Of a stretch of 64,000 bases of DNA, positions 25,701-51,381 are shown piece by piece. A model generated the notes under the pieces. That model saw nothing but the letters and a program-made list of their open reading frames with translations. It did no database searches and was not told where the DNA came from. The DNA comes from Trichodelitschia bisporula (taxonomy: Eukaryota). The stretch lies in the NCBI GenBank assembly GCA_010356995.1, contig ML996691.1, forward strand, positions 1,122,174-1,186,173, given 5' to 3'. Position numbers and translations under genes: made by a program. The first letter of the stretch is position 1; every line of letters begins with the position of its first letter.

Positions 25701-28700
25701 TTCGTCTCCTCAGCAGGCGAATCCTTAACAACCTCCACCGCTTCCGCTCCTGCTACGGTTTCTCTGGTGTCCTGTGAGCGCGTGATTTTCGACTTGATAG
25801 TGGGCTCTTGATCGGTGGGGGTGCGTTCAAGAGTGGGCTCGGCAAGAGCAATGCTTTGCTCCACAATGGGAGGGGCTGGAGGCTCAGCTTGCGCCTGGGC
25901 CGAAGGAAGGTCGCGCACTTCACGCGCTTCCTCTCGCAGGATCTCGGTGGTGACAGTTTCCGTATCAGGGACTGCAAGACTAGTCGTCTTCTTGGCCCCG
26001 GGCCCAGTGGTCTCCATAGTAGGTGTGATAGGCGTTGCCGCACTGGAAGATTCTTCCGCAGGCATGGACTCGGTCTGGAGTTCGGACAGAGGCATCAGCT
26101 TCCCGGTCTTCTTCTTAACCTTCTTTGCTTTCTTCTTTGCAGCCCGCGAAAGGAGAGGATCTTCGTCCGCAGTGACCGGGTCAGGCAGGTCCTTAACTTC
26201 GGGGACGACCTCAGGCGCCGGCGATGCGGGATGCGGCTCCTGTGTGGGCGAAGGGTCGACTGTCCATGTGGTAGTAATAACGCCGGGTGCCTCACGCGTA
26301 CCAGCTGGCTCGACAGACTTGGCAAGTTGGGGTTCAGGATCTGGAGTTGGCGCGTCCGCAACAGCTTCGCGCACCATAGCAGCAACGACGTCGGTTCGAG
26401 ACGGCTCTGTAACCACCTTTTGCGCTTCTTCAACGATAGGCGAGGCACCAGGAAGTGAGTCAAGTGCGATGGTCATCTTATCATCTTGAGCGATGGGCTC
26501 TTCCGCGGAGGCAGGAGTGATTTGTCCAGATGCCTTTTTGCCCTTCTTTTTCTTAGCTTTCTTGCTCTTGAGCGAGAAGAATGACTCCTCGATGGGCTCA
26601 GGCTCAGAGATGGCTTGAGCTGGCGTAGAGGCAGCTACTTCAACAGCAGCTTCCGCAGCGGAAAGAGTAGGTTCGGGCTCTTCAGACACAATTCTTGAGG
26701 AAGTGGCCAGAGCAGATGTGGACGGGAAAGTTTCAACAACATCGCGCGACGATTCAGCCGTGACCTTTGGCACCACTTCCGCAATATAGGGTGGAACAGC
26801 TTGATGCGTGACTTCGGTGAGATTGTCAGGTCCAGCAAGCTTCACGGGCTTCTCTTCTGTCGTCGGAGAGGCGTTCATGGCGGCCGCCGGCTCAGCTGCA
26901 GAGACCTTGTTCTTGCCCTTCTTATTTTTCTTTTTCTTGCCCCACAGCTCTCCTTGCAGCCAATCGTCTTCGGCTGCATCAACTGGAGATACCGCGACAG
27001 TCGGAGTGGCCTCAGGACCGGAGGTGGCTGTGACAACCGGAGTAGCTTCGACGGACGGAGTCCCCTCCACGACCGGGGTGACGTCAACGGCAGACGTGGC
27101 CTCCGCAACCGCGGTGGCTTTTAGGACTGGGGCAGCTTTGGTAGTTGAAGGAACTTCGGCAACCGTCTCAGAAACAGCAACTGGGGTGGATTTGGCCGAC
27201 AGAACAGGCTCGGGAATAGAAGGGGCTGCGGCCATGGACGCTTCCTTATCGCGGATGGTATCGTCACGAGTAGGTACGGCTCCTTTCCCGATGTCGTCGG
27301 AGATAGCAGGCTCAATCATAGAAACTGAGAGGTCTTCAATCGCATCCGCAGCGGCAGCGGCTTTCTGCTGCTGCTTAGCCTTCTTTCTAGCCTTCTTGCT
27401 CATCGGAGGAGTAAAGGACGGCTCCTCGGTAGGCTTGATTTCGGTGACCTTTGATTCCACTGCCTGGTTGACAGCAGGCATTTCGCGGGATTGCTCGTAG
27501 ATAACAGCCTCAGTCGCTTCGGTAACCGACTCCGGGACAGGCGCTTTGGTAGGTGCCAAAGCAACGCCTTCGGTGTGCACTTTGGTGGAGGCATCGGTAG
27601 GGATATCCAGCTGGACTTGCGGCTCAGAAACATTGGCGGCCACAGTAGGAGTCTCATCAGCACCCGGAACTTGGGCCACAACCTCGCGAACGGTCGGCTC
27701 AGGAACCGAGGAAATGTCAGCGTCAATGACTGGCGTATCTTGCTCAACCTTGGCTTCCGGCTCCGGGGTCGTCGTGCCCTCTCCCTTCTGCTTCTGCTTT
27801 CCAGTAAGCTTGCGAGAAAGCATGGAGAAGAACCCTTCTTCGGCGACAGGTTCCGACATAGTAGTAGGAATATCCGCAGGTCCTTCAGTCAGCGCGGCCA
27901 CAACATTTTCGAAGGTTTCAACCACGGGGATATCAGCATCAGCAGTGTCGGCGACAGGCTCCGCAACGGTCTCTGCAGCAGGTTGTACATCCAGCGTAAG
28001 AGCGTCCTTCGAGCGTTGAGTATCAGCACTCGACTGCACAGCGGAGTTCGTCTCGTGTAAGGGTTGAGCGGCCTCAGAAAAGTCGGTTGTGATCACAGCC
28101 TCAGACTCTTTGACGTGTTCATCAGTCTGGATCGGTTCAACAAGAGTTACTCCGTGCGCCGCTTCAAGAGCCGTCCCGACCGAAAAGGGCTCGGTCATCT
28201 CGGTGGCCTCGAACACTGGGTATCCCATGTCGGACTCCATCGTGTTCAGCGAAGTAGAGGGGGGAACGATAATTGTGGGGTAGACTGGAGGAGGGGCACG
28301 CATCGAAGTAGGCTCGGAAGTTTTGGTCTCCCGATGGCCAAACGAGACCGAAGCCTCCGAGGGCTCGGGGGACGGAAATCTCAGGTCGGCAGTTGCGACG
28401 ATCTCAGGGACAACAATGATCGTCGCGCCGTCGGGACCAATCTGCGCGATGGTTTCGGGAGTAATCTGCGCGATGGCATCAATCTTCTGCTGGTCAGAGG
28501 CAATCAGTTGCCCAAACGAGCCCGAAGTTTCCGAGGGTTCAGGGGACGGGAAGCGCAGGTCGGCAGTGGCAGTGATTTCGGGGACAACGATGATCGTCGC
28601 GCCGTCGGGACCAATGCGTACGATGTCCTCGGGCGTGATCTCGGGCACATGTTGCTTGATCTCTGGCTGCTCGAGCTCTGGCGTCGGCTGCACATCGTCC

Positions 28701-31700
28701 ATCTCAGACGAACGCAGCGGTCGAGTAAGTGTGAGGCCCATGGTGGATGGAGAAGCAGGTGTTTCGGAAAGGGGAATAAGAGTCTCTTGAACGGACAAGG
28801 GGGTTTGGGGTTCAAAAGCAGAAGGCTGGTAGGTAGAGGTCTGAGGAACAAAATCAGGAGCTTCGTGAACAGAACGAGGTTCGTTAACAGAAGTGGAGAT
28901 TTCGGGTGCGAAGGTTGGTTGTTGTAGTAGAGGTTTGGTTGAAGATTCGGCGGTTTGCTCTGGCTCAGGAACAAGGTCGGAGAAAGTGGCATCGGCTATT
29001 TGTTTTCCCTTCTTCTTCTTCTTCTTGATCACTTTCTTCTTGGCAGATGTGGTCGATGCTTCAGTCTCGTCTGGTGTTGTCTGAACTCCCTCAACGGTGG
29101 GCTTTGTCTCTTCGGCTACCGGTGGTGTCTCTTCGGCTACTGGCGTTGCCTCTCCCGCCCTGGGTATCATCTCATCTGGGACGGGACGAACGCCCTTGGC
29201 CGTGATTGGAGCCACCTTGACAGACGGTTCAATGGTCGACCCCAGCACTTCAGTGATCGCAACATCTTCGGAAGGCACTGGAACTTCGGCCACTTCGCTC
29301 ACATGAGCACGCTCGGGCCCAGAAACGGACACTTCTTTGACTTCGGCGATATCATCCGTCGGTTGAGGCACGGGTTCTGTTTCCTCAGCAACAGGCTCAA
29401 ATGTGGCTGGTGCTCGGGTAGACTCATCAATAGCCGGCTGCTCGATAGGCAACTGCGGGAGGTCCCTGGTCTCTTGAACCTCAGCTTCAGTCGCCCTGGA
29501 TTCTTTCTGCCGAGTCACATCCTCCGCCTGGTCAGCCTTCTTACTCTTCCCCTTCTTCGTCTTTTTCTTGGGAAGGGTGGGAGTTTCTTGTGTATCTTCG
29601 GCGGTCTGGACAGGTTCGACCGTTGGCTCGATGACATCAGCTTGCTCGCTGGGTCGGTCAACCACAGAAGGACGCTCGTCTTTGACTTCGGGGACGGGTT
29701 CGGGCACTCCCTTTGCGATAGTAGGCTCCAATACCCCAGGGGTGTGGGCAGCTTCGATAACGGTTTCGGCAATGGATGATTCCGGAGCATGTTGTGTTTC
29801 CTCGGCGACTTCGAGAACAACTCCCGGTGCAATCCACTCGACTTCGGGTTCCACAGGAGCCGCCTTCTCGAATTCAGGCTCCGCAGGCGCAGGCGTTTGG
29901 AAGGGTTGAGCGTCATCAGTCGTCTCTGTCGCAGCTTTCTTCGCTTTCTTAGCTAACTTCCGCAGTTCCTTTGCACTCAGAGCCGGTGCTACTGGCTCCA
30001 CCTCCGGAATAGCCTCTGGGGATGCTTCAACAGGAAGCTCGTCCTTGACTTCGAGCACCATTTCGGGTACAACTTCGGGCACATCCTTTACGATAGGAGG
30101 CTCCAAGACCGCAGGGGCGGGAGCGGCTTCCACAACGGTTTCGGTCACAGACTGTGCGGGGCCAGGTTGCGATTCCTCAGTAACTTCGGGTACAATCTGT
30201 TCGACTTCAGGCTCCAGAGGAACAGACGTCTCGGATTCAAGCTCCAAAGGCACAGGTGCTTGAGCGGGTTGAGCGCGATCAGTCGTCTCTACCGCAGCTT
30301 GAGAAGTCTTCTTCGCCTTTTTAGCCAGCTTCCGCAACTCCTTTGCGCTCAGGGCGGGTGCGGCTGTTTCTACTTCCGGAACAGCCTCAGGAGATATCTC
30401 ATCGTTGCGGGGTTGCTCGAGGGGCGCTTCGGCAGCCGGTACGGGTTCCACTGCTTGGATTATTGACGAGGCTTCCTCGGCTTGCCGAGGTTCAGTGAGA
30501 ACTTCAGTTTCCAGAAGAGCAGGCTTCTCAGATTCGGGTTCCGCAGGCGCAGGCGTTTGGAAGGGTTGAGCGTCATCAGCCGGTTCCGCTGCAGCTTGAG
30601 CAGCCTTCTTCGCCTTCTTTGCCAGTTTCCGCAATTCCTTTGCACTCAGAGCCGGTGCAACTGGTTCCACTTCCGGAAGAGCCTCGGGAGATATCTCATT
30701 GTTGCGGGGTTGCTCGAGAGGCGCTTCGACAGCCGGTACCGGTTCCACTACTTGGACTGTTGACGGGGCTTCCTCGGCTTTCTGAGGTTCATCGACTTCT
30801 GGCTCCCGTTCAGGCTTCTGGTCAGCGAGGTCGGGGGCAGCTACGGGTACGACAAACTCTTCCTTGGCCAGCGGCTCGGCCTCAACGGCTACGGCAGGCG
30901 GAGGTTGCTGGAGTGGCTCCTCAGACCCAGGTTGCGAAAGAACAACTTCCGCGAGCTGCGAAGGCTCCTCGATCTTGCCGACGGACTCTGCGGTCTCAGT
31001 TGTCTGGATTACTGCTTCAGGTTCAGAAGCGAAGTCCTTTCGGGTGACGGCCTCTTTTGGCAGGTCCAGTTCCGCGGGCGGAGCATCAGCTTCAGCGACT
31101 TCTTCCGAGATGGAACTCTGTCCAGCCTTCGCCTTCTTGTTCTTTTTGGCCTTCTTTTTTACAGCACGGCAGAGGGGCTCTTCTTCGACAGGAGTTTGGA
31201 GCTCGACAACAGGCTCAACGACAGGCTCAACGGCAGGCTCAACGACAGCAGGCTCGACGACAGGCTCGACGACAGCAGGCTCGACCACGCACTCAATCAC
31301 AGGCTCGCGCACAGGCTCGACGGCAGCAGGCTCGTCGACAGTAGACTTGACAACAGAGGGCTCGACAGCAGCGGGTTGGAGAACAGAGGGCTCGACAGCA
31401 GCGGGCTCGACGGCAGTGCGCTCGGCAACAACAGGCTCGGGTTCAACAACGGCTTCAGTCGCTGGCTTCTGCGCTTCAACAACTGGAGCCAGACTGAGTG
31501 TTGCTTCCGCTACTTCAGGCTTGCCAAGAGCTTCCGTCGTGACTTCAGGCTTGACAAACTCCAAAGGTTGCTGCTCTTCAACGGCCTCGGCTGGTTGCAG
31601 GATTTCCTTAGACTGCGACACTGGCTGAACTTCTTTGACATCCAGAGTCGGCTCCTCGAGTTTCATCGGAAGTGGTACGACATCTGCAGGCTTCACAAGT

Positions 31701-34700
31701 GCCGGCTCGATTACCACTGGCTGAACAACCTGCTCAGTGACCACCGGTGGCCCAGCCTTCGCCTTCTTAGCAGCTTGGTTGAGTTGGCGGATGCGCTCCT
31801 TCACGCTGAGCTGCCGTACGACCTTCTCAATGGCCGGTTCTTGCACCTTGACGGGAGGTTCGTCTTTGAAAGCAGCAGGGGTCGGGACGGCCGCTTTCGC
31901 GTCAGGAACAGCTCGTGAGGACTCTGCGACGACAGGGGCCGGCTCTTCGATAGCAGCCGGAAGAGTTAGTTCCCGGTCCGTCTTTTCGGGTTCTGGAATC
32001 AGCTCCGGGGTAGCCGCACCCTTTTTGGCCTTGTTCTTGCGCTGCTTCTTGGAGAGAGTCTCGGCTTCCTCTGCTATGGCCAGTGCTTCGACGGCCGGGG
32101 TGTCCACAACGGGAGCTTTGACAACCGGCTCGTCTAGAGTTGGAATTTCTGAGACGGGAACTTCAGCCGCTGGGGTTTCAGCAGCCGGCGCTTCTACAGA
32201 AGGAGCTTCAACGATCGTTGGCTCGACAACCGGTAGCTCATCTACAGGAGCCGGCTCTTCAATAGCAGCCAGAATGATCGGTTGCAGATCTGTCTTTTCG
32301 GGTTCCAGAACCGGCTCCGGAGTGGCCGTGCCCTTTTTGGCCTTCTTCTTGCGCTGCTTCTTAGAAAGGGTCTCCGTGCCTTTTAGAATGGCGGAGCTTT
32401 CCACGACTGGGGTGTCCACAACCGGACCTTCGACGGCCGGCGCGTCCACCGCAGGGGCTTCCACAATCTTTGACTCGACAGCCGGCGTCTCCTCGACAGG
32501 GACCTCAGGAACCGGCTCTGGGACTGAATCGAATGGACCTTTAGCGACTTCCGGAAGGTCTTCCAGTTCCTTGGTCCTATCAACAGGGGCCGTCGGTGCA
32601 TCAGCCTGTGGTTCAACCGTCTCTGTGGTGGGCTGCGCAACTTCTACAGCGGGCTTAGCAACTTCAGCCGTAGTCTCTTTGACTTCCGCGGTGGTCTCAG
32701 GGACATTGGCAAAAATCTCCTTAACCTCGGGAACAGCAGCAACCTCCTCAACCGGCAAAGCCTTCGAAAGCGGGTCCTCGGTCTCAACCGCTGGGGTGGA
32801 TGCGATAATAGCCGATGTAGAGCTCTTCTTCTTCTTCTTTTTGCTCTTCTTACCCTTCTCCACTACAGATTCGGGGGCTTCTGGCACCGGTGCAGGTTCC
32901 AAGACGGGCTCGGATGCTTCGGCAGTGGGTTCGGGTACTTCTACGGCAGGTTCCACGACTTCGACTGGCTTGATGACTTCGAGTGGCTGGACGACTTCAT
33001 CTGGCTCAACAACTTCAACAGGCTCGATGGTCTTCGACTCCGTCGGCAGAATTGGCTCTTCAATCGCAGCCCCTTTGGCTTCCGCAACAGTCTCAGGAAC
33101 ATCAGGCATGACCTCCTTGACCTCTGGAACCGCGGCAACCTCTTCAACTGGCAAACTCTTCGAAAGTGGATCCTCAGCCTCAACAGCAGGGGTGGACGCA
33201 ATACTAGCCGACGTAGAGCCCTTCTTCTTCTTTTTGCTCTTCTTCCCTTTCTCCGCTGCAGATTCGGGGGCCTCCGGCTTCGGTGTAGGTTCCGCGGCAG
33301 GCTCGGATGCTTCTGCGGCGGGTTCCAGTGCTTCCGAGACGGGCTCAGGTGCTTCGGCGATGTGCTCGAGTGCTTCGGTGACGGGTTCAGGTACTTCGGC
33401 GATGGGTTCGAGCGCTTTTGCGACGGGTTCGAGCGCTTCAGCAACGGGCTCGGGTACTTCCACCGCCGGTTCCACAACTTCGACTGGCTTGACGTCCTCG
33501 AGCGGCTGAGCAACTTCAACCGGCTCAACAACCTCAGGATCGGCAGGAAGGACAGGCGCATCGATGACCTCCCCAGCAACTTCAGGAGCCTCCTTAACAT
33601 CCAGGACAGCCATAGGAATCTCGGAAGGAACCTCGGGAAGAACCTCTTCAACGTGCGGCAGCGCAGCAACGACCTCCTCAACCGGAAGCTCCTTGGACAG
33701 CGGACCCTCGGATTGAATAGCCGGCGTAGAAGGACCGCTGACAGAAGAGCCCTTCTTCTTCTTCTTCTTGCTCTTCTTCCTCTCCACAGCTGTTTCGGTC
33801 GTTTCTGGTGCAGGAGTGGAAGCTTCAACAGTCGGCTTAGGAGTGGCAGCTTCAATAGTCGGCTTAGGAGCGGCAGCTTCGATAGCCGACTCGGGCGTCT
33901 GAGTAGAGAGCTCGATGACCTCGGTCGGCTCTATGACTTCCGGTTCATTAGTCGGGAGAAATTCCTCCTTGGCGGCTTCTTTGACGTCTGGAATAGTGGA
34001 AAAGACTTCAGGAGTAGCCCGTGTTGGTCTGGACGTGGTTGCCTTGATCTCGGAGGCAGGCTCTACCACTTTCCGAGTAGCTTTGAGCTCAGGGGCGGTT
34101 TCTAATGCTTCGAGGGTTGTCTCTTTGACCTCTGGGACAGTCTCGTCGGCCTCTGGTACACCCTTGAGCTCCGCCTCCAGAGCTTCGGAGGTGATTTCCT
34201 TGATCTCTGGGACTGCCTCTACGCCAGAAGCAGGTCCCTCAGCAGGCAAGTCCTTCGAGAGCGGATCTTCTGACTCGACAGCCGGCGTAGAAGGAGTGCT
34301 GACCGAGGCGGCCTTCTTCTTCTTTTTCTTGGCCTTCTTCTTCTCCGCTGTCGTTTCGGTCTTCACTGAAGACATAACGGCTTTAGCCGCTTCGGGCACG
34401 TCGGTAGTGGCCTCGACGACATCAATTGGCTGGGCGACATGCTGTGTGGTGGTTGGGACGGGTGCCTCATATGCGATCTCCTTGACATCGGCTGGCAGGG
34501 TGACTTCCCGTGCGGCGGTTGGGCCGGGTTCCTCGTCTGCGATCGGCTTGACACCAGGGCGAGAAAGTGGTTCATTGACGACTTCAGCGGGCTCGGGCAC
34601 AGTCTCAACGACCTCGCGAGCAGGTTCTAGGACCTCAGAAACCGCCTCTTTGGCCTCCGGAATGGTCGCTACAGCCTCAGGCCCATGCTTGTTCTCCAAG

Positions 34701-37700
34701 ACGCTCTCAGGAGCTTCAGAGGCGACTTCTTTGACTTCGGGAAGAGGCTTCAGGGTCGGAACACTCTCGTCGATAGGAAGCTCCTTGGAAAGCAGATCCT
34801 CGGCCTCAACTGCTGGTGTGGACGGAATACTGACTGAAGTGGCACCCTTCTTCTTCTTGCCTTTCTTCTTCTTCGAGGGTTCGGCCTCCACGGTGATGGG
34901 CTCGGACTCGACAGCAGTTTCGGTCGTTGCAGGAAGTTCAGGCTCAACGGACTCAGGAATGGTCTTTGCAACCTCGACAGGCTTCACAACCTCAACAGGC
35001 TTCACCACCTCGGAAAGAGGTTCCACAACCTCTGGCTCACCCTGAGCCTCCGCGACGATCTCAGGAGCTTCAGAGGTGACTTCTTTGACTTCGGGAAGAG
35101 GCTTCAGGGTCGGAACACTCTCGTCGACAGGCAGCTCCTTGGAGAGCAGATCCCCGGCCTCAACTGCTGGTGTGGACGGAATACTGATTGAAGCGGCACC
35201 CTTCTTCTTCTTCTTCTTGTTCTTCTCCTTCGAGTGTTCGGCGTCCACGGTGATGGGCTCGGACTCGATAGTCGTTTCGGTCATCGTAGGAAGTTCAGGC
35301 TCGACGGACTCAGACATAGTCTTTGCAACCTCGACAGGCTCCACAACCTGAACGGGTTCCAGAACCTCACCGGGATCCACAACCTCAGAAAAAGCCTCCT
35401 TGATCTCCGGGGTGATCTCCGGGGTGATCTCCGCAACCTCTGGCTCATCCGTAGCCTCCGCAACGGTCTCAGGAGCTTCGGCGGCAACTTCTTTGACTTC
35501 CGGAAGAACCTCCACGATCGGAACACTCTCGCCAACAGGCAACGCCTTGGAAAGCGGATCTTCGGACTCGATTGCAGGCGTGGACAGAACAACTGCGGGC
35601 GTGGACGAAATACTGGCTGAAGCTGAGCCCTTCTTCTTCCTCTTGCTCTTTTTCTTCTTCGAGGGTTCGGCCTCCGCGACGATGGGTTCGGGCTCGATAG
35701 TAACAGTTTCGGCCGGTTCAGAGAGTTCAGGCTCGACGAGCGTCGGCTCGGCAGCCGCGGACTCGACAACCGCCGGCTCGGTGGCTACTGGTTCGACTGA
35801 CGAGGACGGAAGGATCGGCTGAGTGACAGCTGGCTTATCTGAGACGATAGATTCCGAAACGATAGCTTCTTCCGCAGCGGTCGTGATGGCTTCTGGGGTT
35901 ACGGTCTCCAGGACATCAGCCTCAGATGCAATATCTCGTCCCGGGGTTGTTTCGGCAGTAATCGGCTCAGGAACCGCTTCGACTGGTATATCCTTGAGAA
36001 GCACCTCCGGCAAAGGCTCGAGGACATTGAACGCCTCCCGCTCCGAGGAAACCAACTCCGAAACTGCTGCCGCAGCAGTTGCAGGCTCAGTAAGTGAAAT
36101 AGGTGCTTCTTGGATATCTTGGCTCCCGGGTTCGCGCTCAGCTTTGTCAACCGTGATCTCCTCTTTCACAGCCTCTGGCGCAGCCTCCGCCTCCGGTTCG
36201 ACAGCTTCGGTGCTCTTGCCCTTCTTTTTCTTAGGCTTCTTCTTTTTACCCTTGGGCACCGAAGCCTCTTCGACCGCCGCCGCTGTCTCCTCCGTGATCG
36301 GTGAAACCTCGACAGCGGGAGTGGGTTCGACTTTGACCTGCTGTGGGGCTTCGATGATCACTTCAGGTGCCTCGACAGTCCGCTCCTTCGAATCTCCAGG
36401 CGAGGATTGGATCTCTACCCGTGCCGGCTCCGGTTGAACAGGTCCCAGGACAGTCATCTCCGACTCGACCAGCTTCTCCTCTGGCATAGGCCCCTGCACT
36501 GCTGGCTCGGCGATGGGGTGGACCATTTCAACGGCATCAACTGCATGGGTGCCCTGCGGTTGCACTTCCGCCCCGACCGTCGCAAGAGGGGTCTCCACGA
36601 CATCGCTCTTCCTCAATGAAAAGTCCTCCGCTTGAACCGCATCCGCCTTAACAGGTCCTTGGACCGGCGAGTTGACCGCCGTGACAGGTTCCTGCGCAAT
36701 TGCGCGCTCAGTCACCTCCGCAGCCGGCACCGCTTGAGGTTCAACAGCAGGTACTGACTTTTCCTCAACAGCCTCAGGCACCTCAGATGACGCATCCTCC
36801 GTAGCAGCAGCAGCAGACGCAGCCTCCTCTTCCAGCTGCTTAGCCCGCTTTTTCTTCTTGCTCTTCTTCGACTTTGCGGACGCCGGGACAGGTACCTCGA
36901 CCGTCTCAGCCGGCTTCACCTCAGCCGGCAATCCATCACCAAGAACCGCACCAGTGCGGCCCTTGTCCTGCGCACGCACACCCATCTCGTCTCGCACTTC
37001 ACGCTGCCCAGCAGCCGTCTCGTCACTCCCAGAAACGTTGCGTTTATCATCTGACGTTAGACGTGGCTCAAGAGACACGGGAGGGGATATCAAATCCGTA
37101 GGGACATCAGACAAGATGCTTCCGGCGGGAGCATCAACCTGACCAGAAATTTCCCTCGCGGCTCCAGGTGCAAGTCCCGTACCCACAAGATCAGCAAGCC
37201 CCACACCAACCCCAGCCCCCAAGCCAAGTCGTTGGTCGAGTCTAGCGCGCTCCACACCAGCGCTCGGACCAGCCGTCTCCGCGTGCGGGATCGGCTCATC
37301 CTCGGCGCTACCGGGAGTGGCGCTATCAGCCGCGCGTGTCAGGGTGTCATTGGCCGGGTGTATGGAGCCGCTTTCTGACCGCTCTGTGCCTGGTTCGGGC
37401 AATGCACGTGTGGACGCGCTGTCCGTCGGCGCCTGCTGCAAAGTGTCTTGCTCTTGCGGCTGCTGCAGTGCAGTGCGCTCGGTCTCGTCGTCGGCGGGCA
37501 GTGCAATGGAGGCTGGTTCTGGTGAGGTGGGGGTTGGTACTTGCGCGGTCGGTGCTTCTGCGATTGGTGCATCCGCACTGGCTGGCGGCGGTTCCTTAAG
37601 CTTCTGTTTAAATGCAAGCGCAGCGCGCTCGCGGGCCAGTGCCAGCACGCCCACGTTGGCGAACGACATTTTGCGTGGGTCGATGGTTGGCATGGACGGC

Positions 37701-40700
37701 TTGTCGGACGGCTTTTCCGTTGGTGCGGGTGGCTTTTCTTCAGCCTTGGGAGCTTCCTTCTTGTTCAAGATGCGCCCGAAAGCAGACCAGATGGACGTGC
37801 CTGCTGCGGCGGCCTGAGAGGGCGTCTCGGACGGTGGAGGGCGTGGGGGTGATGATTCGAATGGCAAGCTGTCAGGGTCGGGGAATTCCTCGATTTCGCC
37901 CAGGGAAGCTGGGAGGTCGCGGGATGACGTTGGTTGGCTTTCTTCTACCCGTTCCATCTGCTTGGAAGTGAGCTCCGCCGCTTTGGCAAGAGGCTGAGGC
38001 GCTGGCTTCTCCTTTTCAACACGCAGCAGTTGCTCCAGCGCCGCCTCGGGCGTGACAACACCCGTCATGTGAAGATCCGGATCGATTCCGCTGTCAAACA
38101 TAGGGACCGATTCTGAAGGTGCGCGCAGCAGGGGCGCCTTGTCTGGGACTGGTAGGGCCTTGGAAGCTTCCTCTTGGATCGGCTCCAGGGGTGTAGCATG
38201 GAACACCGCCGTCGTCTCCGGTGCGAGAGGAATCTCGCGCTTGTCCGTGACCACTTCGAGCACATCCGTCGGAATATCCTTCGGCACCACTGGCATCGAC
38301 TCGGCGAGCTCAGGAAGGCGTTTGTTGGCGATAGGGCCAGTCTGGATCGACAACGGCTCCACGCCCTTCTTCTTCTTCTTGCCCTTGCCTTTGCTCGTCG
38401 GGGTCACCTGTCCAACCTCCCCGCTCTCAACCCACGACTCGACTGTTGCCCGCGAATCCTGGCCAGTGATGTGCTCAAGCTCGGCGGAGGTGAGTTCTTT
38501 AATCTCAGAGGACGGCTCGGGGACAGGTTCAGCGGGTGTCTTGCCCTTGTTCTTCTTCTTCTTTTTCTTGGACTTGGAAGAAGCCTGAGAGGGAGCGATG
38601 GACACTTCTTTGGACGATGCTTCGGCGTCATCAGTCGGAAACTGCCGTGTTTCGTCCTTGGAGGCTTCGGATGATAGGAGTTCACGAGCCGCAAGCCCAG
38701 CAGCGGCACCGAGGGCGGTAGCCGCGACGACGCCAGTACCAGAGTGCTCACCACGGACGCCAACTTCCTGTCCGGGCGTTTCGTCCAGATCTCGCGCAGC
38801 TTCACCCGCCTTCCTTGTCGGCGTAGCATGTTGCACGGCAGGCTCGCGACCCCGCGTGGGCGAAACGCGCACCTCAGCCTCAGCGGCAGACTCCTCAGCA
38901 TCCGACTGCCTCCAATGCTCAGGATACGGGTCCTCATCCCCGTCCTCAGATACACTCCGATCCGACGTCCCAAGCGGATGATTCGAAAACGTGTCCGCCG
39001 TCGGAGTCGCCTGCTGCGAGTCGAGATATTCGCTCGAGCGCTGGCTGCGCGTATCGATCTGCAAACCGAGGCCCTCGAACGGATCTTGGAAGTTCATCGG
39101 CGATTCAAGCGACGAACGCGTCGATCGCGCGTCTTCGTCGACTTCCTGCACTGATGGCGCACGGGAAGTAGCTGTGCTCTCGGGCAGAGCGGGGAGCACG
39201 GGGAGGATAGAGTCGATCTCGGGCGTGCGGCGGTTGCGCTCGGGCAGGTACAAGGGCCGCAGTTCTTGTGTGTTGACCCTGTATTCAAGCGAGGGCGTCT
39301 TGGAGTGCCGCCGCGAGTGTGTCCATGGTGAAGTTGGCGAATCGGCTGCCGGGGATGCACCGGCGGGAGAGCTGTTGCGGCCCCAGCGGAGGGCGATGGG
39401 AATGGCTGTTGTCGATGCGGCGCGGAGCTTTTCCAATGTTGGCCGCGGAGGAGTCTTGGGCTCCTGGTATGGCGAGCCGGGCCTGCTTCTGGGGAGGGCG
39501 GGAAGATCCTCGAGAGAGTTGACATCGATGGGAGATGCTGGTCGTGATGGTGGCAGCTGAGGTAGGCTTGCAAGATCCAGATAATCCAATGCCGGGAGAG
39601 AGCGTGCCACTGGGTGAGGCGCAAGGTCTTTGTAGGATGTGCTTGGTCTGCTCTCAGGCGAGTCAAGCAGATCATGTACACTGAAGAACTCGGGCAGCTT
39701 TCGTTGGATGACGGGAGTTTCGGGTAAGTCCCTTGCTTCAACATGAATGGGGGAAGGAGGCCTGCTGTCTGGAAGGCCGGGGAGATGAAGAACTGAGCCC
39801 ACGTCAATAGGGGATGATGGGCGAGTAGGCGGAAGGGAAGGGAGGTCCACGAGAGAACCCACGGTGATAGGAGACGAAGGCCGAGTGAGAGGAAGAGTGG
39901 GGAGGTCTCGAAGGCTGCCAACAAGAATTGGAGATGACGGGCGAGTGGTAGGTAAAGATGGAAGGTCTCGCATGCTGCCAACCAGGATAGGAGATGAAGG
40001 ACGAGTAGTCGGCAAAGAAGGGAGGTCCCGTAGGCTCCCAACCAAAATAGGAGAGGATGGCCGAGTGCTCGGAAGGGAGGGAAGGTCGTTCACACTTCCC
40101 ACAAGTATTGGCGAAGATGGCCGCGTGGTCGGCAACGAGGGGAGATCTTTCAGACTTCCTACCAATATCGGCGAGGAAGGCCGGGTAGTCGGCAAAGAGG
40201 GAAGATCTTTCAGACTTCCTACCAATATCGGGGAGGAAGGTCGAGTCGTCGGTAGGGATGGAAGATCCACCAGGCTTCCAACGAGAATCGGAGACGAGGG
40301 CCGCGTCGCCGGCAACGAGGGAAGATCACGCACGCTCCCGATCAAGATCGGCGAAGACGGCCGCGTCCCCGGCAGCGAGGGTAAGTCCATAACGCTGCCG
40401 ACCAGCAAGGGCGACGAGGGCCGCGATCCAGGGAGCGAGGGGAGATCAAGGACACTCCCGACTAGCAGAGGAGAGGTCGGCCGCGACTCCGGCAAGTCCG
40501 GCAAGTCGACGGTGCGACCAACGGCAATGGGCGAGGAAGGACGGGTACTCGGAAGAGAAGGCAAATCGACAGCGCGGCCCACAGCGACAGGGCTCGAAGG
40601 CCGCGAGCCGGGCAAGGACGGCAAATCCACCGCGCGACCAACATCAACAGGCGACGAAGGCCTCGTCGACGGCAAAGAAGGGAGATCGACACTCCTGCCG

Positions 40701-43700
40701 ACATCGATAGGACTGGCAGGCCGGCTATGCGGGAGCAGCACGCTGAGCGCGGAAGTGAGAGTGCTAGCGGGCAGAGGGTCTACACTCTCATCCTCTGCCC
40801 GCACCCCTAAAAAAGACAGGTTCTTCTTGTCTCCGTTGCGCGTGTTGTCCCTAGGTTTGAAGTCCTCGGCGCTCAGCACGTCTTCCACGATGTCGTCGGG
40901 CGGTTGGCGCGGGTACCGGGACACGGGCCGCTCGGCGCCTTTGTCGTAGTCGTACATACCTTGATCTCGCTTGCTGCTGTGGTCGCCGGCGCTGGACCGC
41001 CTGCGCGACCGTTCTCGCTCTTCGCCGGTGCTGGACCTGCTCGAGCGGTTTTTGCTGGGCTCGGACGCGGTAGGCTTGTTGAACATGGCCATAAAGCCGG
41101 ACTTTGAGCTGTCTCCTGACTTGCGCTTCTTCTCGTCATAGGCCTTGGACGTAGAAGCGGAAGAGACGACAGACGGAGCATCGCTGCCACGGCGGGGTCG
41201 TCCAGATTCGGTCTCTCCAGGCTCAGAAGCGGGATACTTGCGGCTGCGGCGCGGAGACTCGGACTCGTCGTCTCGAGGTTTGCGTACTTTCCTTCTTCTT
41301 CTCCTGCGCGTGCCGTCGCTTCCAATGACTGATGGGGTTGACTCAGTAACAGCCGAGATACTCGAGCGCGCTTGGCTGTCGTCATCGCTATCAGACGAAG
41401 GATCGTAGTCGTCTTCTGATGGAGCTTCCTGGACGGCCTCTGCACCAACGGTTGCGTCACGAATATCGCTATAGGAGCGACGTGATATGTAGCCAGAATC
41501 ATCCGTGGATGGCACGCGTTCAGAGTCGTCGGTATGGACGCCGTGGTCAGCACCGGTTGGAGTGGAGACAGGCTCCTTCGCTTTGGACTTCGACTTTTGG
41601 GTCGCCGCTACTGCTGCTGCAACTGTGCCCCAAGGGGCAGCAGACGACTTCGAAGACGCCTTAGTAGACTTCACCGAGTCTGCCTCGTCCTTGAGGTCCC
41701 TCCTTCGCGACGTCGGCTCACCTTGCTCATCACTTGGAAAGCCACCCGGAATTTTCTTCGACTCAGGAGGAGGGGTCTCGTCATAGACTTCGCCTTCTAT
41801 GAAGCCAGGATGCTTGGGCGTCGGACGCAAATCAAGCTCTAATTCGGGGATTTCGTACGGATCCGGCTCAACCACAACAGGCGTGACCTCCGGGGAATGC
41901 GACTCGATGATTTTTTCCGGATACACTTCCCGCTCCTCGGTAGGTGTCGACATGTCGTACCGTGCCACAGTGTCGCCGTTCTCTGCTTCCACGACGATTT
42001 CGCTCTGGTCCTGAGGCTTGGAGTCCGCCCCAGACCGGAAGTAGGAAGTCTGATGAGACGGATCCGGTGTCTGAACCTCATAGTACGGAGTCACCACGTC
42101 GTAGTGGAAGGTTTCTCTTTCCTCCTCAGCCCACTTGACCGACTTCGAGGGTTCTACTTCAGTCGGTGCCGCAACCGGTTCCGCTGCAGCAGGTTCCTCC
42201 TTTGGCTTGATCTCCGGTGAGGGCATAGGCGAGAATCCCTTCACCGAGCCAGAAGTACTTCCAGGAGGCGTGGGCGCAATGAGTTTGAGCGACGGAATAG
42301 GCCACGGTGCCATGAATCCATCCTTGCTTGTGGTGAAGGCGTACTGCGGGTGATATGGAGGTGCATGTGTAATACGGCTGAGCGTCAGGTCAGGCACCAT
42401 ATGCGGCTCCATGTCGCCATTAGGATCAATTTTTGGCGAGGGAGCGGCGCTATGATCGCGTAGCTCGGGCGGGGCGAAGAACTCAGCAGGGCTGACGGGG
42501 ACCTCGTTATAGCGCTCCTCGAAGTCGTCCAGGACCTTGTCCGCGGCATCGCGCGATTTGGCCTCGCGTGCGTTCCTCTCAGCCTGGCGTGCTTCGGCCT
42601 CGCGTGCCTTCCTCTCGGCTTCGCGCGCCCTCTTCTTAACGAAGTAGTCCGGTGCGAAGACATCCTCCTCGTGGAAGGAGTCAATCTCAACATTGCTCGG
42701 CTCGACATGGACGATGGCAGCTGGGGCCACGGCAACAACACTCGGTTGCGCAACCTTTGGCTCGACACCGACTGTGGAAGCGGCTTCGCGGTAAGAGGGT
42801 TCGACCTTGCGAGGCCGATCCTCCCGACTTGTACTGTCGCGCTCTTTACCCTTCACAGAATCGGCGTACGAGACAACGGCGGCACCGGCTGCAGCGCCAA
42901 CGGCTCCTGCCAGAATGGCTTCGGTGATGCCAGAACTGTTATTGTCTTCGTCGGCATACTTTGGCTGCTTGCGTCCCTTGTCGGATTGCGTCTTGCTGAT
43001 GTCATATGCGCCTTGGCGTCCGGAGTCGTCGGCGTAACGTTTCCGCTCGAGCTCCACACGGGCCTCGCGCGTTTCGTAAGAGGCCTGCCGCATTCGGTCG
43101 GCCTCGTATTCTTCCCGGCGCAGTCGGTCAGCTTGTTCTTGTTCCCGACGCCTGCGATCAGCTTCATCGCGTTCACAGCGCAGGTCCGCCGCCTCCCGCT
43201 CTCGACGCTGGCGCTCAGCCTCTTCCTGTTGACGCAGGCGATCAGCGTCCTCCTGTTGGCGCACGCGATCAGCCTCAACCTGCTTCCGTCGCAGCTGCTC
43301 AACCCGATCCCGTTCCCGCTGGAGTTGCAACTGCTCAGCCCGCTCACGCTCAAGATGCTGCTTCCTCTCCGCCTCCTCCCACTCACGGCGAATGCGCTCG
43401 GCTTGTTCCCGCTCGCGCTGCAACTGCTGAGCCTGTTCACGCTCGCACTGCTCCAACAACTGAGCCTCACGCTCACGCTGCTGCTGCAAAAGCTGAGCCT
43501 GGTCCCGCTCGCGCTGTTGCTGCTGTCGAGCCAGCTCACTCTCGCGGCGCTGCTGTTCAACCTTGCGTCGTTCTTCCTGAGCCTCGTACTCCAGGCGCTT
43601 CTTCTCCTTCTCGCGCCAGGCACGCTCCTCCTCGTCGCGCTGCTGGAGACGTTTCTGCCGCTCCGACTCCGTATCGTAGCGTCCCGTAAGGCGCTGATCG

Positions 43701-46700
43701 CGCTCGGGGGTGCTCTCCACGAAGCGGACGCCTTGGCCTTGGCTGTCTTTGCGCCGTGCTTGCTGTGCTTTCTGTGCAATGATAGATCCCCCGATGATGC
43801 CTCCGATAACGGGAGCGATCACCGAAGCTTCATCACGTCGAGGTGACTTGCGACGGCGAGGAGGAAGCACGGGAGCCCGGTCGCTATCTGACGAGGAGCT
43901 GTGTCTAGAGTGCCGACGCCTATTCTTCTGCTGATAGCGAGGGTCTGGACGAGGGGGCTTTGGCGGGTTGGTGTAGTCAATCGGAGGGCCGTCTGGCGCG
44001 GTATATGTCTGCGCATTATACACAGAGTTCCGGATCGGAGCCTGAGGCTGCGGCTGTTCGTAGCGGGTGCTTCCCTGTCGGGATGGCCGTGTCGGCAATC
44101 CAGGTACAGCTTCGTAGCGACCAGGTTCATCCGTGAGAACTGGATGAACAGGTACAATGCTCGGTGACGTTGTGATAGACGCTGCAACGCTTCCCTCAAT
44201 GAAGGAAGCGTTCGGTGGGGTGAAATTCGCGTCGCCGTACCCAAGCGTCAAACTCTCCTGCGACGGCTTCTTACTTTGCCTCCTCGGCCATCGCCAGCTC
44301 CACTTTGTCACGCCGGAGCCATTCGAAGCCAGCGAGTCGCTACTCTTCCGAGCGGCGCTCTGTGCCTTGTAAAAGTCGCCAAAGGCAAGCGCAGAATCGT
44401 GGGAAGATGCGTTATCCGGAACATCTCCCTCATCCTCCCACTCTCCCTCGTCATCACCAGCCAGAACTCCAGAGTACCGTCCCGAAGATTTGCTTGGCTT
44501 GCTCGGTGCGATACCTCTGGTTCCCGGGTGCTGATTACGGCCCTTTTGCCTTCCCTGAGCGGCTTGCAGTGCCATGGTGGTAGCGCCAATACTCAGCAGC
44601 GTCTCGTTCAGCCGCTCCGTCGAGGTTTGGCGCTTGTGCTTGCGCTGCCGCAGTGATTCATTCGATTTACGGCGCTTGTGCCTCCGAGCATCTGTGCCAT
44701 AGACAAGGCCGTTGTCGGCGGACGAGGACGCATTCCCGAGGCTGAAAAAGGATTTATTCCGCTGATGCTGCTTCTGCTTCTGCTTCTTCGTAGAAAACAG
44801 CCCGCCGAACAGACCCCCGCCAGCCGAGACATTTTCCTTTGAGGACCACGCCAGAGACTGGTTCGAACGCCGCGAGGGACCATCATTCCGGTACACACCA
44901 TCGACACTATCAGAACTCCCCTGGCGACCATGGTGCACACGGATATATTCCTCGGAAGGTGACTTGGTCCGCCTCTGTCGTCGTCTGTCCTGGGTGGCAG
45001 CGATGGCAGATCCAGCAATCGCGGCTCCGGCAACGGCTCCAAGGCCGCCCGACATCCGTTCGCGGGATCTAGAACGGGAGCTGGAAGAATGGCGCCGAGT
45101 CCTCTCATAAAAGTAGGTGTTCGAATCGCGCCTTGATTCGGTGGGAACACGCTCCAGGGATCGGCTTCGTCGACGTCGTGGCGCTTGAAAGGTCGAAGCG
45201 CTGACTCCGGTTCCACGGTCAAGAGATCTGCTGCGACGCCTGGTAACACCGCGGGATGTCTCGCTCGCCCTGTCGTCACGCACAGCAACTGACTCCCGCG
45301 AATCCATCCGACGGCCAGATCTGACGCTGTAGGTATCGTCGAAGTCTCCTTTGTGGTTGGTGATTGCGTTACCGACTTTCCCGGCACCATACGCCGCAGT
45401 ACCCGCTAGGGCGGCAGTTGCCAACAGGTTCGTTTTGCTACGGCGCTTCTCGCTGTCAGAGGAATGATACCCGCTGTACCGCGATTCCTTGCTGATTCGA
45501 CCAGTGGTGTGCAACTCGCCAGATCTGCCGAATTCGTCAGACCTTCTCTCACGAAGATTTCCCGAGGTGCGACGCCGAGGCCGGTGCTTGCGCGGCGCAT
45601 CGCTTGGAGTAGTGCGAGGGTCGAAGCAATCCTTGCAGACGCCGATGTACTCCATGTACTCCTCCATCTTCTGCACGTCTTCGTGATCCTTCCACCAGTC
45701 CACGAGCTTGCTGATGGGGTTAAGACGCCTCCGCTCCATCATCTCCGATGCGTTTCCAGAATAGTGTATATTGTGGCTCCCTGGGGGGCGATTGAACCCG
45801 TTTGTGGGCAGCGAAGCGGAGTGGTGGTGCGAAGCCTGGTGCGAAGCCTGGTGAGCCGAGTGTTGATGGTGAAGAGCATATGCGCCAGCAGCCAACCCTG
45901 CCGCCCCAGCGGCATATGCGCCGGTTTGAGAGTCGGACGAATGCTTTCCAGGCTTCCCGCTCGAGGAACCACCTTGGGGCCTCGTGGGAGTAGGCGGACC
46001 ATATGTCCCAGCCGTTGGCCCTGGGCCATTCTGGTACGAGCCAACACCGCCACTCATGCTTGTGGAGGAAGCCTGCTGGTAGTACGACGTGCCGCTGTTC
46101 TCCACATGTGAGCTTGGAGACTGCGTATGGCTCCCAGCATGGCTGAGTCCATAGCCAACAGCAGCTGCGCCGGCAAGGGCAGCCGCAGCAGGGACTCCGC
46201 TGCTGGATGGCTTCGAAGAGTAACTGGGCTGGCGGCCCGGGCGCGGAGAATTCTGCTGCGAGCTAGCCAGGACGGCAGGACTAGGAACGCTCTGGGGCCG
46301 AGGGGGCCTGGTAGGGGTTGCTGAAGGGCTGGTGGACGGCTGTCCTGGAGGCGGCCCACCACCAAAATAGTCATTAGCGGTACCTTGACCTGTCTCTTGA
46401 GGAGGCGCGGGGGTCGCGTGGGGCGTCATTAGGTGCGGTTGTGTACTCGCGATGACCTTTGGCGGCTCCGGGCGAACTCCGGGTTGCGTCAAAACGGACT
46501 GTCCATGGTCGCCGTAGTATTCGGCAGCCAGACCAGGGCTCGGAGCTGGGCCAACAGCCGGTTGGTACGGGAAGGGATGCTCATATGTGGAAGGGTCCTG
46601 GCCAGGAAACTGGTTCGTAACCTGCGGAGTCGGGTAACTGTTCTGATGAGGGAGAGGAGGGGCCGCTACAGGCCCTTGACCGGGAAACTGGCCCACACCC

Positions 46701-47248
46701 GAAGCCGGCGCATTCGAAGGGACGTTGCTCTGAAAATCGTCCATGGCCCTACTCGACGCGTACTCGGGCTGGTCCAGTCCTCGGTCACTCTCACGCCTGT
46801 CACCGGTCCTACTCCGCCTCTTGGTGCGGTCTTTGCGCTTGCTGTCACGCTCGCGACTCCGCGACCGATCCTTAGAGCTATAATTCCGGTCGCCGCGGTC
46901 GCGACTGGACGACCTCTGACGGCGCGTGCCAGCCCTGCTCTCCGTAACATACGAGGCATTATCATCCAGCGTTGTGCGGCGATGAGTGCGGTCGGCGCCG
47001 ATGTAGTCGGACCCCCTATCACGGGACGGGGCCGTCGCATAAGATGACGCAACGGAATCGCCGTCTACGGGAGGGTACGCAGAGGTTCGAGAGGGGGTGC
47101 GACGGGTACGAGATTCGTCGGCAGGCGGATTTCGGGACGTGGAGGATGAGACGACAGACTCGGGGCGATTTCGAGACGACGAAGATTCGCCTTTGCGCCG
47201 GGGACTCGGCGGCGTTGCATCGCTCTTCTTCCCGCCGAAAGGCCACAT
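19776..47248 (-). CDS. lah: Leashin, Woronin-body septal tether (often annotated 'involucrin repeat protein'), ~9,123 aa. Exons 47248-21428, 21371-20405, 20359-19776
   Basis: An 8,607-codon open exon joins the downstream coiled-coil/C-terminal ORF through a GTAAGT..CTAAT..CAG intron (21427-21372), giving MEGVL|EGWGDRTGSPMSPTRPPSIRKRQSM. N-terminal motif DWWKDHEDVQKMEEYMEYIGVCKDCFDPR; acidic E/P/A/V-rich middle with poly-Lys tracts; C-terminal domain RDEDYFDEACQKLCQHVQQWVLRFSKFSD. This matches Pezizomycotina leashin architecture as recalled. Confidence 0.85.
28350..28640 (-). repeat. Two copies of a ~37-aa unit (ITPExIxxIGPDGATIIVVPEIxATADLRFPSPEPSE) within leashin
   Basis: Near-identical at the DNA and protein levels. 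Confidence 0.9.
29930..30720 (-). repeat. Three dispersed copies of a PEVExxAPALSAKELRKLAKKAKK module within leashin
   Basis: Seen in the translation at about 30605-30660, 30305-30360 and 29935-29990. Confidence 0.9.
32750..35665 (-). repeat. Seven dispersed copies of a poly-Lys + SxxSTPA(V/I)xxExPLSKxLP module within leashin
   Basis: Seen in the translation; copies are spaced about 350-550 nt apart with E/P/V-rich linkers. Confidence 0.9.
39745..40735 (-). repeat. Tandem coding minisatellite, 60-nt / 20-aa unit (DLPSLPTTRPSSPILVGSLx), ~16-17 copies, within leashin
   Basis: The 60-nt periodicity is visible as column alignment of consecutive 60-nt sequence lines; synonymous positions have diverged. 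Confidence 0.95.
40756..40814 (-). promoter_or_regulatory. Candidate -1 programmed ribosomal frameshift signal (slippery heptamer plus stem-loop/pseudoknot) in leashin mRNA
   Basis: mRNA-sense sequence: T TTT TTA GGGGT GCGGGCAGAGG A TGAGAGTG TAGAC CCTCTGCCCGC TAG CACTCTCA. The heptamer is in the correct phase and the two stems (11 bp and 8 bp) are perfectly complementary. Confidence 0.65.
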
Positions 47249-49993: not shown

Positions 49994-50436
49994 TCTCGAG
50001 TTGTTTTGTAACTCGTGGCCGAGCTACCTGAATGGGCTTTCTGTATTGCGCTGTAAAGGGTCCCGACTTCCACTCAACGCGTCCGCGTCGCAGGTTGAAC
50101 CCTGAGCAAAATTGCAAACAAAGCGGCGGCGATTGAGGGGGGGAGCAACAAGAGGTTTCGGCGCTCGTTTGGATGTAAGATGGGAAGACTCAAGATCGAA
50201 GGTTTAGAAGATTCGAAAGAATGATGTTAAGGTTGAAGTGGGAATACGATGCGGCGCTGAATGCGGAGGGCAGATGCAAGCCGGAGGCCCGTGCATTCGA
50301 AGCCAAGATTTCGTCCACTTTGTTCGAGTAGAGGACCCGCGCGCACAACAGAACTTTTGAGATCCGACGTCCTGCTTGTCGAAGTTGCATCCTTCACAAC
50401 GACGGTTGACACCATTCCGCCTCACAGCCAGCAGTC

Positions 50437-51048: not shown

Positions 51049-51381
51049 TGTTCTTTTGGGCAACTCGTCTCGTTCCGGAACATTCTCATGGCGACAACAT
51101 CAACACGGGCGTTGGTTACGACATTGACCTATCACGGGCCTATTTATCGCTTGACGGTTGGGCCGCGGCCTGGAATTTATGGTATGCGGAGTACGGAGTC
51201 ACTTGTGGGGATGGTGGGAATATGGATTTGTTCAAAGGCTACTCTTGTCCCTCTTCCGGACGGGAAGCTTTTGTTCTTGAACTGGCCAACATTTGCTGGA
51301 TGCGAGTAGTATTTGGCAACTCTGAGCTCATCTTTTCTAGCGGCTAAAAACGCATCGGCTCTATCAAAACAAGATCTTCTC

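Follow-up and report, generated by a model that had tools for sequence, protein, structure and literature searches.

A candidate -1 ribosomal frameshift signal conserved in the leashin-type gene of Trichodelitschia bisporula and other filamentous ascomycetes

The stretch of the Trichodelitschia bisporula genome analysed here (64,000 nt of contig ML996691.1, called the window throughout) carries on its minus strand a giant gene of the leashin type, leashin being the tether by which Woronin bodies are attached to the septal pores of filamentous ascomycetes. Within this gene, at the point where the N-terminal region of the protein gives way to its repeats, a slippery heptamer, U_UUU_UUA, is followed by a short spacer and a hairpin. 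Comparison with related loci suggests that the site is very probably a working and ancient -1 frameshift signal, which would give a product of about 2,153 aa from the mRNA of the giant protein. The site bears the accepted comparative signature of -1 programmed ribosomal frameshifting (PRF), since it combines an in-phase heptamer, a spacer of 5-7 nt, a stem that covaries or is replaced, and suppressed synonymous change. The slippery codons are invariant against codon usage and form a local peak of synonymous-site conservation, and the slippery signal is present in the mature transcript. On these grounds it is considered likely that ribosomes really shift here, and a probability of about 0.6 is assigned to the more specific reading, according to which the site is a working programmed -1 frameshift and the short, head-only protein is its selected product.

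The Site and Its Setting in the Gene

The leashin-type open reading frame (ORF) extends over 47248..21224 of the minus strand, on which both the gene and the site are read, and comprises 8,674 codons. Codons 2145-2147, TCT TTT TTA (40816-40808), place U_UUU_UUA (40808..40814) in the X_XXY_YYZ phase of the zero frame and, with the G that follows, form the decamer TCTTTTTTAG (40807..40816). The spacer, GGGGU (40803..40807), measures 5 nt to a perfect stem of 11 bp, or 7 nt to the 9-bp core of this stem that is conserved in other loci. The two arms, GCGGGCAGAGG on the 5' side (40792..40802, conserved core 40792-40800) and CCUCUGCCCGC on the 3' side (40767..40777, conserved core 40769-40777), enclose a loop of 14 nt (40778..40791) and encode R-A-E and P-L-P, respectively, of a protein motif described below. 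The loop contains the UGA stop of the -1 frame (40788..40790) and the octamer UGAGAGUG (40783..40790), which is specific to this genome; the octamer is the exact complement of CACUCUCA (40756..40763), with which it could form a second stem of 8 bp. In the -1 frame the sequence reads AGG GGU GCG GGC AGA GGA UGA, that is R-G-A-G-R-G and a stop six codons past the shift, so that the predicted product has 2,153 aa and ends in ...NLSFLRGAGRG, where the zero frame has ...NLSFLGVR. The positions and pairings of the heptamer, spacer, stem, octamer and -1 stop had been listed in a preliminary description of the window, made from its letters alone, and all of them were found to be correct when the minus strand was read again. 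The placement of the site at the boundary between the N-terminal region and the first repeats is likewise borne out by the first repeat array of the tether, which occupies 39866..40723 with a period of 60 nt, corresponding to 20 aa, and begins 33 nt past the element.

Within the ORF, 15 classical heptamers were counted, three of them in phase, and the sole U_UUU_UUA is that of the site; TTA accounts for 12 of the 457 leucine codons. The 11-bp stem is also the sole perfect hairpin stem of at least 10 bp (loop 3-40 nt) across the 26-kb ORF; codon-shuffled ORFs hold 0.33 stems of this length on average, and any such stem was present in 25% of 40 shuffles. The 8-bp pairing between the loop and the downstream strand was equalled in 1 of 500 shuffles. 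Since scanning very much sequence yields pairs of a heptamer and a stem by chance, the window alone is insufficient, and the argument is carried by other genomes.

A search with residues 1-2300 of the window protein retrieved 79 orthologues of 4,798-7,497 aa. Those with a species name belong to Dothideomycetes, Lecanoromycetes, Geoglossomycetes and Paracoccidioides, and many are annotated as 'Involucrin repeat protein', as are the family members of Aspergillus, Penicillium and Talaromyces. The N-terminal domain EEY(x/T)EYIGVCKxCFDP...DAPRKH was found in 78 of the 79. The window gene matches the leashin type of architecture in its giant ORF, its 20-aa repeats and this N-terminal domain common to the giant orthologues. 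According to Ng et al. 2009 (PMC2690989), leashin is a giant protein of Pezizomycotina whose N- and C-terminal regions are complex and whose acidic, poorly conserved middle is made of repeats rich in P, E, L and S; a second paper (PMC8227032) says that AFUA_2G08060 of A. fumigatus, an 'involucrin repeat protein', tethers Woronin bodies to septal pores. The name leashin is used for the window gene because architecture and annotation names fit, the link to LAH of N. crassa and Lah of A. fumigatus being by name only. Pfam gave no family on the first 2,416 residues of the window protein, and the Protein Atlas gave one lead, to an unnamed family, at 0.78 and thus under the counting level.

Conservation of the Slippery Codons

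Seventy-four loci on metagenome contigs were retrieved by alignment to the N-terminal domain, each with 10-kb flanks. In 47 of them the decamer is found with the same letters as in the window, in the S-F-L frame and 3.8-6.6 kb downstream of the N-terminal domain. Two more loci, L033 and L034, have CCT TTT TTA TGG, which encodes P-F-L-W and corresponds to CCTTTTTTAT; their serine-to-proline change retained the final T, and therefore the heptamer survived while the decamer did not. In four loci that extend at least 9.4 kb downstream of the domain (L020 and L023-L025) no T_TTT_TTA stands in phase, and a further 21 end too early for a judgement; of the 53 loci with sufficient length, 49 thus have the heptamer in phase. 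It had been proposed that true orthologues would keep the heptamer and would not use synonymous phenylalanine and leucine codons freely; this holds for the window and for all 49 loci with the orthologous motif. The four loci devoid of the heptamer have a different repeat architecture, with the repeats SKKDKKKAKKQAK and WAFPIxxKKGKKGKK. One of them, L023, has what could be a decayed site, S-F-S-A-S-R (TCT TTT TCT), at a distance of 6.75 kb downstream of the N-terminal domain.

Grouped by the 11-mers that they share, the 47 loci and the window fall into 31 clusters, and 32 cluster representatives entered the codon tallies. The serine codon is TCT in 31 representatives and CCT, for proline, takes its place in one, while TTT and TTA are found in 32 of 32; TTA makes up 0-14% of the leucine codons of these genes. 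Given the codon usage of each gene, the summed log10 probability of TCT TTT TTA over the 31 clusters is -69.7, a figure that overstates independence because the clusters are related. As a control, the codons of nine residues that are invariant in the N-terminal domain were tallied in 24 of the 32 representatives, and each residue is written with two to four codons (TTC in 14 and TTT in 10 for phenylalanine, four codons for glycine and four for valine). The S-F-L triplets that occur by chance in other frames of the same loci are likewise written with AGC, TCA, TTC, CTC, CTT and others.

The lineage label of a locus is that of its best BLAST match to named proteins and is therefore approximate. 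The clusters resemble Dothideomycetes of the Pleosporales, Aureobasidium and Capnodiales types, Eurotiomycetes of the Penicillium type, and Lecanoromycetes. Thus, L006 has 99% identity over 2,134 aa to a protein of Aureobasidium pullulans, L035 matches a Penicillium citrinum model with 96% identity along 1,926 aa, and L004 has 79% identity over 643 aa to Pyrenophora teres; the closest matches of other loci, at 40-60%, are in Lindgomyces, Friedmanniomyces, Zymoseptoria, Xanthoria and Xylographa. As far as such labels go, the site is common to the Dothideomycete-, Eurotiomycete- and Lecanoromycete-like lineages among the loci sampled. The closeness of site-bearing loci to P. citrinum and A. pullulans makes the proposal testable in tractable fungi.

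Conservation of codons beyond that of residues was measured in four within-group codon alignments. Among pairs of sequences with the same residue, the fraction of identical codons is 0.37-0.49 overall and about 0.83-1.0 in the 5-codon windows over the site, and it remains high for 4-12 codons downstream, depending on the group. For the Capnodiales-, Lecanoromycete- and Eurotiomycete-like groups, the windows over the site rank at the top of 580-855 columns. The Pleosporales-like profile is high as well, at 0.78-0.93, and there the ranking threshold gave no window.

The Protein Motif around the Site

A phmmer search of the whole library with residues 1700-2175 gave no matches, and full-length orthologues were used instead because this region is too poorly conserved for direct search. 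Local alignments to the 79 orthologues converge on one short motif, (D/Q)x-S-F-L-(G/V/D/E/A)-x-R-x-E...P-L-P, an isolated conserved patch in a region that cannot otherwise be aligned. The strict pattern is present in 52 of them, two of which are doubtful (Geoglossomycetes, with S-F-I elsewhere), and looser inspection found the motif in 20 of the remaining 27, so that S-F-L-x-x-R is kept in about 70 of the 79 in total; the Zymoseptoria brevis protein is among those that have it. In an alignment of 25 sequences, no columns other than S, F, L and R are invariant.

A motif kept so widely at the protein level raises the possibility that S-F-L-G-x-R-x-E..P-L-P is selected in the protein and that the heptamer and the stem are there by coincidence, the more so as a reader scanning much sequence would meet such pairs by chance. 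Protein selection, however, cannot fix TCT, TTT and the rare TTA across the 32 cluster representatives (TCT in 31 of the 32). Nor does it account for the compensated changes of the stem, reported in the next section, which match an amino-acid replacement encoded by one arm (A to V, E to V) with a change in the opposite arm. This explanation is thus refuted by the codon tallies and the covariation, unless the loci are far less independent than the synonymous variation of their flanks indicates, and next to no weight is given to it.

Structure Downstream of the Heptamer

When 18 Dothideomycete-like sequences were folded together with RNAalifold, unguided, nine pairs were predicted at the place of the window stem. 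Three of the nine are compensated, by changes from CG to UA (7 sequences), from AU to GC (2 sequences) and from AU to UA (6 sequences) or UG (3 sequences). Over the 11-pair stem, 90.4% of the cells of this alignment are paired, against 40-56% when the partner is slid, and the covariation score of the Dothideomycete-like stem is 0.243 versus 0.114, with none of 500 shuffles as high. The structure is assigned to the sense strand because G-U pairs occur, and the constraint is attributed to the RNA and not to the protein because A-to-V or E-to-V replacements encoded by one arm are accompanied by compensating changes in its partner. The register of the spacer is the same in these 18 sequences and in seven Penicillium-like ones, within the range of 5-9 nt that belongs to a -1 PRF signal.

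In the Penicillium-like sequences the same register is occupied by a different stem, GCCCCGAAAUG...UGGUGYUUCGGGGC, made of 10 pairs around a loop of 28-56 nt, and 95.7% of its cells are paired compared with 20-53% when slid; L033 retains this stem. In the Lecanoromycete-like loci the synonymous constraint extends for about 12 codons despite the absence of a predicted hairpin. A covariance model of the Dothideomycete-like element was run against the 795,910 bases of the window and the loci and gave 35 matches, all at the site, which correspond to the 18 training sites, to six sites in Eurotiomycete-like loci and, 11 times, to the antisense image of the hairpin. A comparison with Rfam gave no match at E up to 1.

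The Lecanoromycete-like loci L029, L047 and L055-L074 share a conserved proline run, PPPPPD, at codons +6 to +10 after TTA, with raised synonymous conservation. It may be speculated that a ribosome stalled at PPPPPD would set the following ribosome roughly on the heptamer.

The preliminary description had also seen a pseudoknot-type arrangement in the 8-bp complementarity between the loop and the sequence past the stem. This second stem is not kept: the best pairing is of 3-6 bp in 17 relatives versus 8 bp in the window, it is no better than in shuffles in 15 of the 17, and about 10% of shuffles reach it in the other two, L006 and L057. A conserved H-type pseudoknot was therefore rejected, and the second stem of the window, without counterpart in the 17 relatives, is at most a private addition. 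In the window itself, the 3-nt linker before the 3' strand of the second stem is short for crossing an 11-bp stem.

Two further patterns of pairing were seen around the conserved stem. In the Capnodiales-like loci L039, L041, L044, L045 and L057, 4-5 bp can form between the loop (UCUG, in a loop of 8 nt) and CAGA 5-11 nt past the stem; L041 shows one two-sided change (CCUG/CAGG), and the pairing is no better than in shuffles. In the Pleosporales-like loci L004, L008, L010, L011 and L013, the minimum free energy (MFE) folds pair the 3' arm (CCACUGCCC) not with the 5' arm but with a downstream partner, GGGUAGUGG or GGCAGUG, which lies about 20-60 nt past the stem; this may be an alternative pairing or may be due to chance.

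Synonymous constraint and stem covariation prove only that the site functions at the RNA level. The conserved element could thus act as RNA in some way other than recoding, the U-run being part of a recognised motif. It could serve as a programmed pause in translation that lets the N-terminal head be assembled or targeted co-translationally, as a site for an RNA-binding protein or in mRNA localisation, and the constraint of about 12 codons without a hairpin in Lecanoromycete-like loci fits a sequence-specific binder. Nevertheless, no part of a -1 PRF signal is missing from the element, and order, phase and spacing are correct. The change from Ser to Pro before TTT in L033 and L034, by keeping the final T, spared the heptamer and lost the decamer. 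Finally, the Dothideomycete-like and Penicillium-like stems differ in sequence and loop size and keep their place, as would be expected of a physical roadblock more than of a binding site. A role other than recoding is consequently regarded as rather unlikely.

The Site in the Transcript

The RNA data consist of the assembled contigs of two runs, X1 and X2, from one sample. Over 40700-58000 the contigs of the two runs show nine joints, which skip 42-142 nt with GT..AG or CT..AC ends and all lie in neighbouring genes, and their depth differs from gene to gene, the bin 47624-48200 being nearly empty; both runs are taken to be RNA because splice joints are present and because depth follows genes. 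Contigs of 12.4 kb span 40700-47612 (X1) and 40700-47590 (X2), with no gaps, no differences and no joint. The main transcript is unspliced at TTTTTTAG, and nothing is excised between TTTTTTAG and the GTATGT at 40959.

These contigs bear on a caveat of the preliminary description, namely that the AG of the site could be a 3' splice acceptor. With its pyrimidine tract followed by AG, TCTTTTTTAG indeed resembles one, and as a conserved, possibly alternative acceptor it would account for the fact that the residue after TTA varies (G, D, E, V, A) yet its codon always begins with G in the 47 loci. In several lineages an intron lies no further than 100 nt upstream of the site, and in the window the GTATGT at 40959 together with the AG (40807) would give an in-frame intron of 153 nt. 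However, the contigs of both runs are continuous through the site and show no spliced junction at 40807, although contigs lose rare isoforms and a minor spliced form may escape them. L033 and L034 have TTAT and hence no AG, with the heptamer retained. Where an intron is nearby, it uses a separate acceptor, 39-90 nt upstream, and the intervening stretch is open, conserved coding sequence; besides, L013, L006 and others keep the decamer with no upstream intron. The AG is thus neither universal nor used in the RNA contigs, the caveat is set aside, and an acceptor function is deemed very improbable. The in-frame intron from GTATGT (40959) to AG (40807) was rejected as a candidate, the stretch being transcribed and conserved in the protein as (P/H/N)VSRY(P/S)xxPP(D/E)(D/E)(I/V)VEDVL.

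An intron 39-90 nt upstream of the site is present in Pleosporales-, Penicillium- and Lecanoromycete-like loci (L004, L008, L010-L012, L035, L049, L055, L056 and L061-L074) and absent in the window, in L013, in L006 and in others. Many public gene models of about 1,750-2,000 aa (P0093-P0200, from Penicillium, Aspergillus, Talaromyces and lichen fungi) end in ...EKV or ...AKV(H/Y)I. They end there because these models run on into the upstream intron and terminate in it; in annotation, therefore, the giant gene is often split into two models adjoining the site. If the upstream intron were sometimes retained, it would provide a second route to a head-only protein.

A Proposed Frameshift and Its Possible Product

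In the mechanism proposed, a ribosome with its P and A sites on UUU UUA would meet the GC-rich hairpin 5-7 nt downstream, which would resist unwinding. A minority of ribosomes would slip back by one base, with tRNA-Phe and tRNA-Leu pairing again on UUU UUU; these would read AGG GGU GCG GGC AGA GGA and end at UGA. The 2,153-aa protein so released would comprise the Woronin-body-binding N-terminal part and be devoid of the elastic repeats and of the septal-pore anchor, while the unshifted ribosomes would complete the full tether. We infer that the short protein, rather than merely a reduced full-length output, is kept by selection. Purely as a conjecture, the shift might set the ratio of free head to full tether and so be a counterpart of the lah-1/lah-2 split of Neurospora. 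A free head is unlikely to be inert because, according to Leonhardt et al. 2017, truncated Lah without its C-terminal domain leads to clustered Woronin bodies.

The shift could also be real and the loss itself be what is selected, either as a lower full-length output or through nonsense-mediated decay of the 26-kb mRNA, the signal acting as a throttle on a costly protein. A premature stop far from the 3' end is a classic trigger of decay, and cellular -1 PRF signals of yeast have been proposed to act in this way. Here, shifted ribosomes would stop about 6,500 codons ahead of the normal stop, there is no conserved -1 peptide, and the -1 stop lies 1-19 codons on, like background. A throttle, however, could sit anywhere in the gene, whereas in all lineages the site is at the same domain boundary, just before the repeats; the mRNA level in the two RNA runs is neutral in this respect. 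Selection for loss alone is accordingly given a small but real chance.

The distance of 1-19 codons from the shift to the -1 stop was found in all 32 representatives, and background distances in these genes have medians of 5-14 codons; selection for a nearby -1 stop, being no different from background, was rejected. An alignment of orthologues had been suggested as a check, with an invariant heptamer, a covarying stem and a nearby -1 stop as its expected outcome. The heptamer came out as expected, the covariation did so in the Dothideomycete-like loci and not in the Lecanoromycete-like ones, and the -1 stop is near, as near as background would have it.

A number of results weigh against a programmed shift with a selected head-only product. 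The nearness of the -1 stop adds no evidence, because its distance equals background, and no long or conserved -1 frame or peptide was found in any lineage, so that the short product could be a by-product. As regards structure, the 77-nt stretch has an MFE z of -1.59, and 15 of 200 shuffles fold equally well; the Penicillium-like stem shows weak covariation, its scores being equalled by 42-49 of 500 shuffles; in nine Lecanoromycete-like sequences no stem was predicted within 140 nt, with a consensus energy of -1.6 kcal/mol; and the second stem of the window is not kept by its relatives. S-F-L may itself be selected in the protein, and here such selection is inseparable from a constraint on the RNA. 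To these points are added the four loci with no in-phase heptamer, the relatedness of the clusters, the approximate lineage labels and the nature of the RNA contigs, which are uninformative on level or translation.

A more ambitious version of the proposal is that the -1 frameshift is ancient, is common to at least three classes of Pezizomycotina and splits one mRNA into free head and full tether, the stimulator having been swapped between a hairpin in Dothideomycetes, a different, long-loop stem in Eurotiales and a queue of ribosomes at PPPPPD in Lecanoromycetes. That all of this holds is quite doubtful. If it did, Lecanoromycetes would offer a natural example of programmed -1 frameshifting driven by collision, and eIF5A or the polyamine state could tune the head-to-tether ratio.

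Comparison with Known Systems

A heptamer followed by a short spacer and a stem is the established architecture of -1 PRF, and U_UUU_UUA is the heptamer of HIV-1 gag-pol. The resemblance to HIV-1 extends to the G-rich letters of the spacer and to the GC-rich stem that comes next, of 9-11 bp here and a stem-loop of about 11 bp in HIV-1. Unlike gag-pol, leashin is a cellular gene and its shifted frame closes in 1-19 codons, whereas that of HIV-1 opens the long pol frame. In E. coli dnaX, which produces tau and gamma, the shift is followed by a quick stop, and a shorter protein with a shared N-terminus and without the C-terminal domains is made from one mRNA; the same is proposed here. Unlike leashin, dnaX is bacterial, and it uses A_AAA_AAG, an upstream Shine-Dalgarno-like stimulator and a high efficiency of shifting.

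To our knowledge, conserved -1 frameshifting in cellular genes of eukaryotes, outside retroelements, is very rare, and several of the cases proposed are disputed. For Pezizomycotina, a review (PMC5009743) describes YIP3 (PaYIP3), a cellular gene with -1 shifting in most species at a U-rich site (U_UUU_UCC in Podospora), a downstream structure nearby and a conservation said to span 400 million years. Like leashin, YIP3 is in that account a cellular, non-retroelement gene of filamentous ascomycetes; its shift extends translation into a long second ORF, whereas that of leashin would truncate a giant protein, and heptamer and stimulator differ. Frameshifting of the -1 type in a cellular gene of Pezizomycotina is thus already known from YIP3, the one precedent found for filamentous fungi, and leashin would be a second case, judging from its sequence. 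For the recoding field such a second case would matter, the more so for its textbook architecture and for letters kept unchanged across classes whose divergence dates back hundreds of millions of years.

As to leashin itself, PMC2690989 reports that in Neurospora the Woronin-body-binding head (lah-1) is expressed apart from the pore-binding tail (lah-2) of one ancestral gene. According to the same paper the split depends on an additional promoter and on an alternative exon that follows intron 10, as opposed to the recoding proposed here, and LAH-1 keeps repeats and gains a cortex-binding end, whereas the head-only product of the present gene would be without repeats. For cell biology, species that keep their Woronin bodies tethered at the septum may also make a head-only leashin, which could act by capping WSC sites, by bundling Woronin bodies or by fixing the number of tethers per body, as a translational parallel to the Neurospora split. 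No report of recoding in leashin was found in the literature searched, subscription journals lying outside its coverage; one paper that speaks of both frameshifting and Woronin bodies concerns an RNA motif of hexA and not leashin, and work on slippery sites in filamentous fungi was found to deal with viruses of fungi or oomycetes or with synthetic RNA devices in yeast.

Other Features of the Window

The giant ORF (47248..21224) probably continues through an intron into a further ORF of 521 codons (19776-21341), to which it appears to be joined by an intron with its 3' site near 21370. The 521-codon ORF is probably the C-terminal exon of leashin. The minus strand at 21361-21420, just before this ORF, is intron-like, with the branch-like motifs tactaat and tgctaat and the acceptor ttaacag, and the ORF itself has weak Pfam matches of the coiled-coil type, below threshold.

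Outside the leashin gene, the contigs of both runs show two joints on the minus strand at 57084-57227 that share position 57084 and skip 43 or 142 nt (CT..AC), which corresponds to an alternative splice donor of a neighbouring gene with high coverage. An inverted repeat of 12 bp at 18169-18221, also outside the leashin ORF, is the longest perfect one in the window; there TGACAGCGCCGC and GCGGCGCTGTCA flank a loop of 29 nt.

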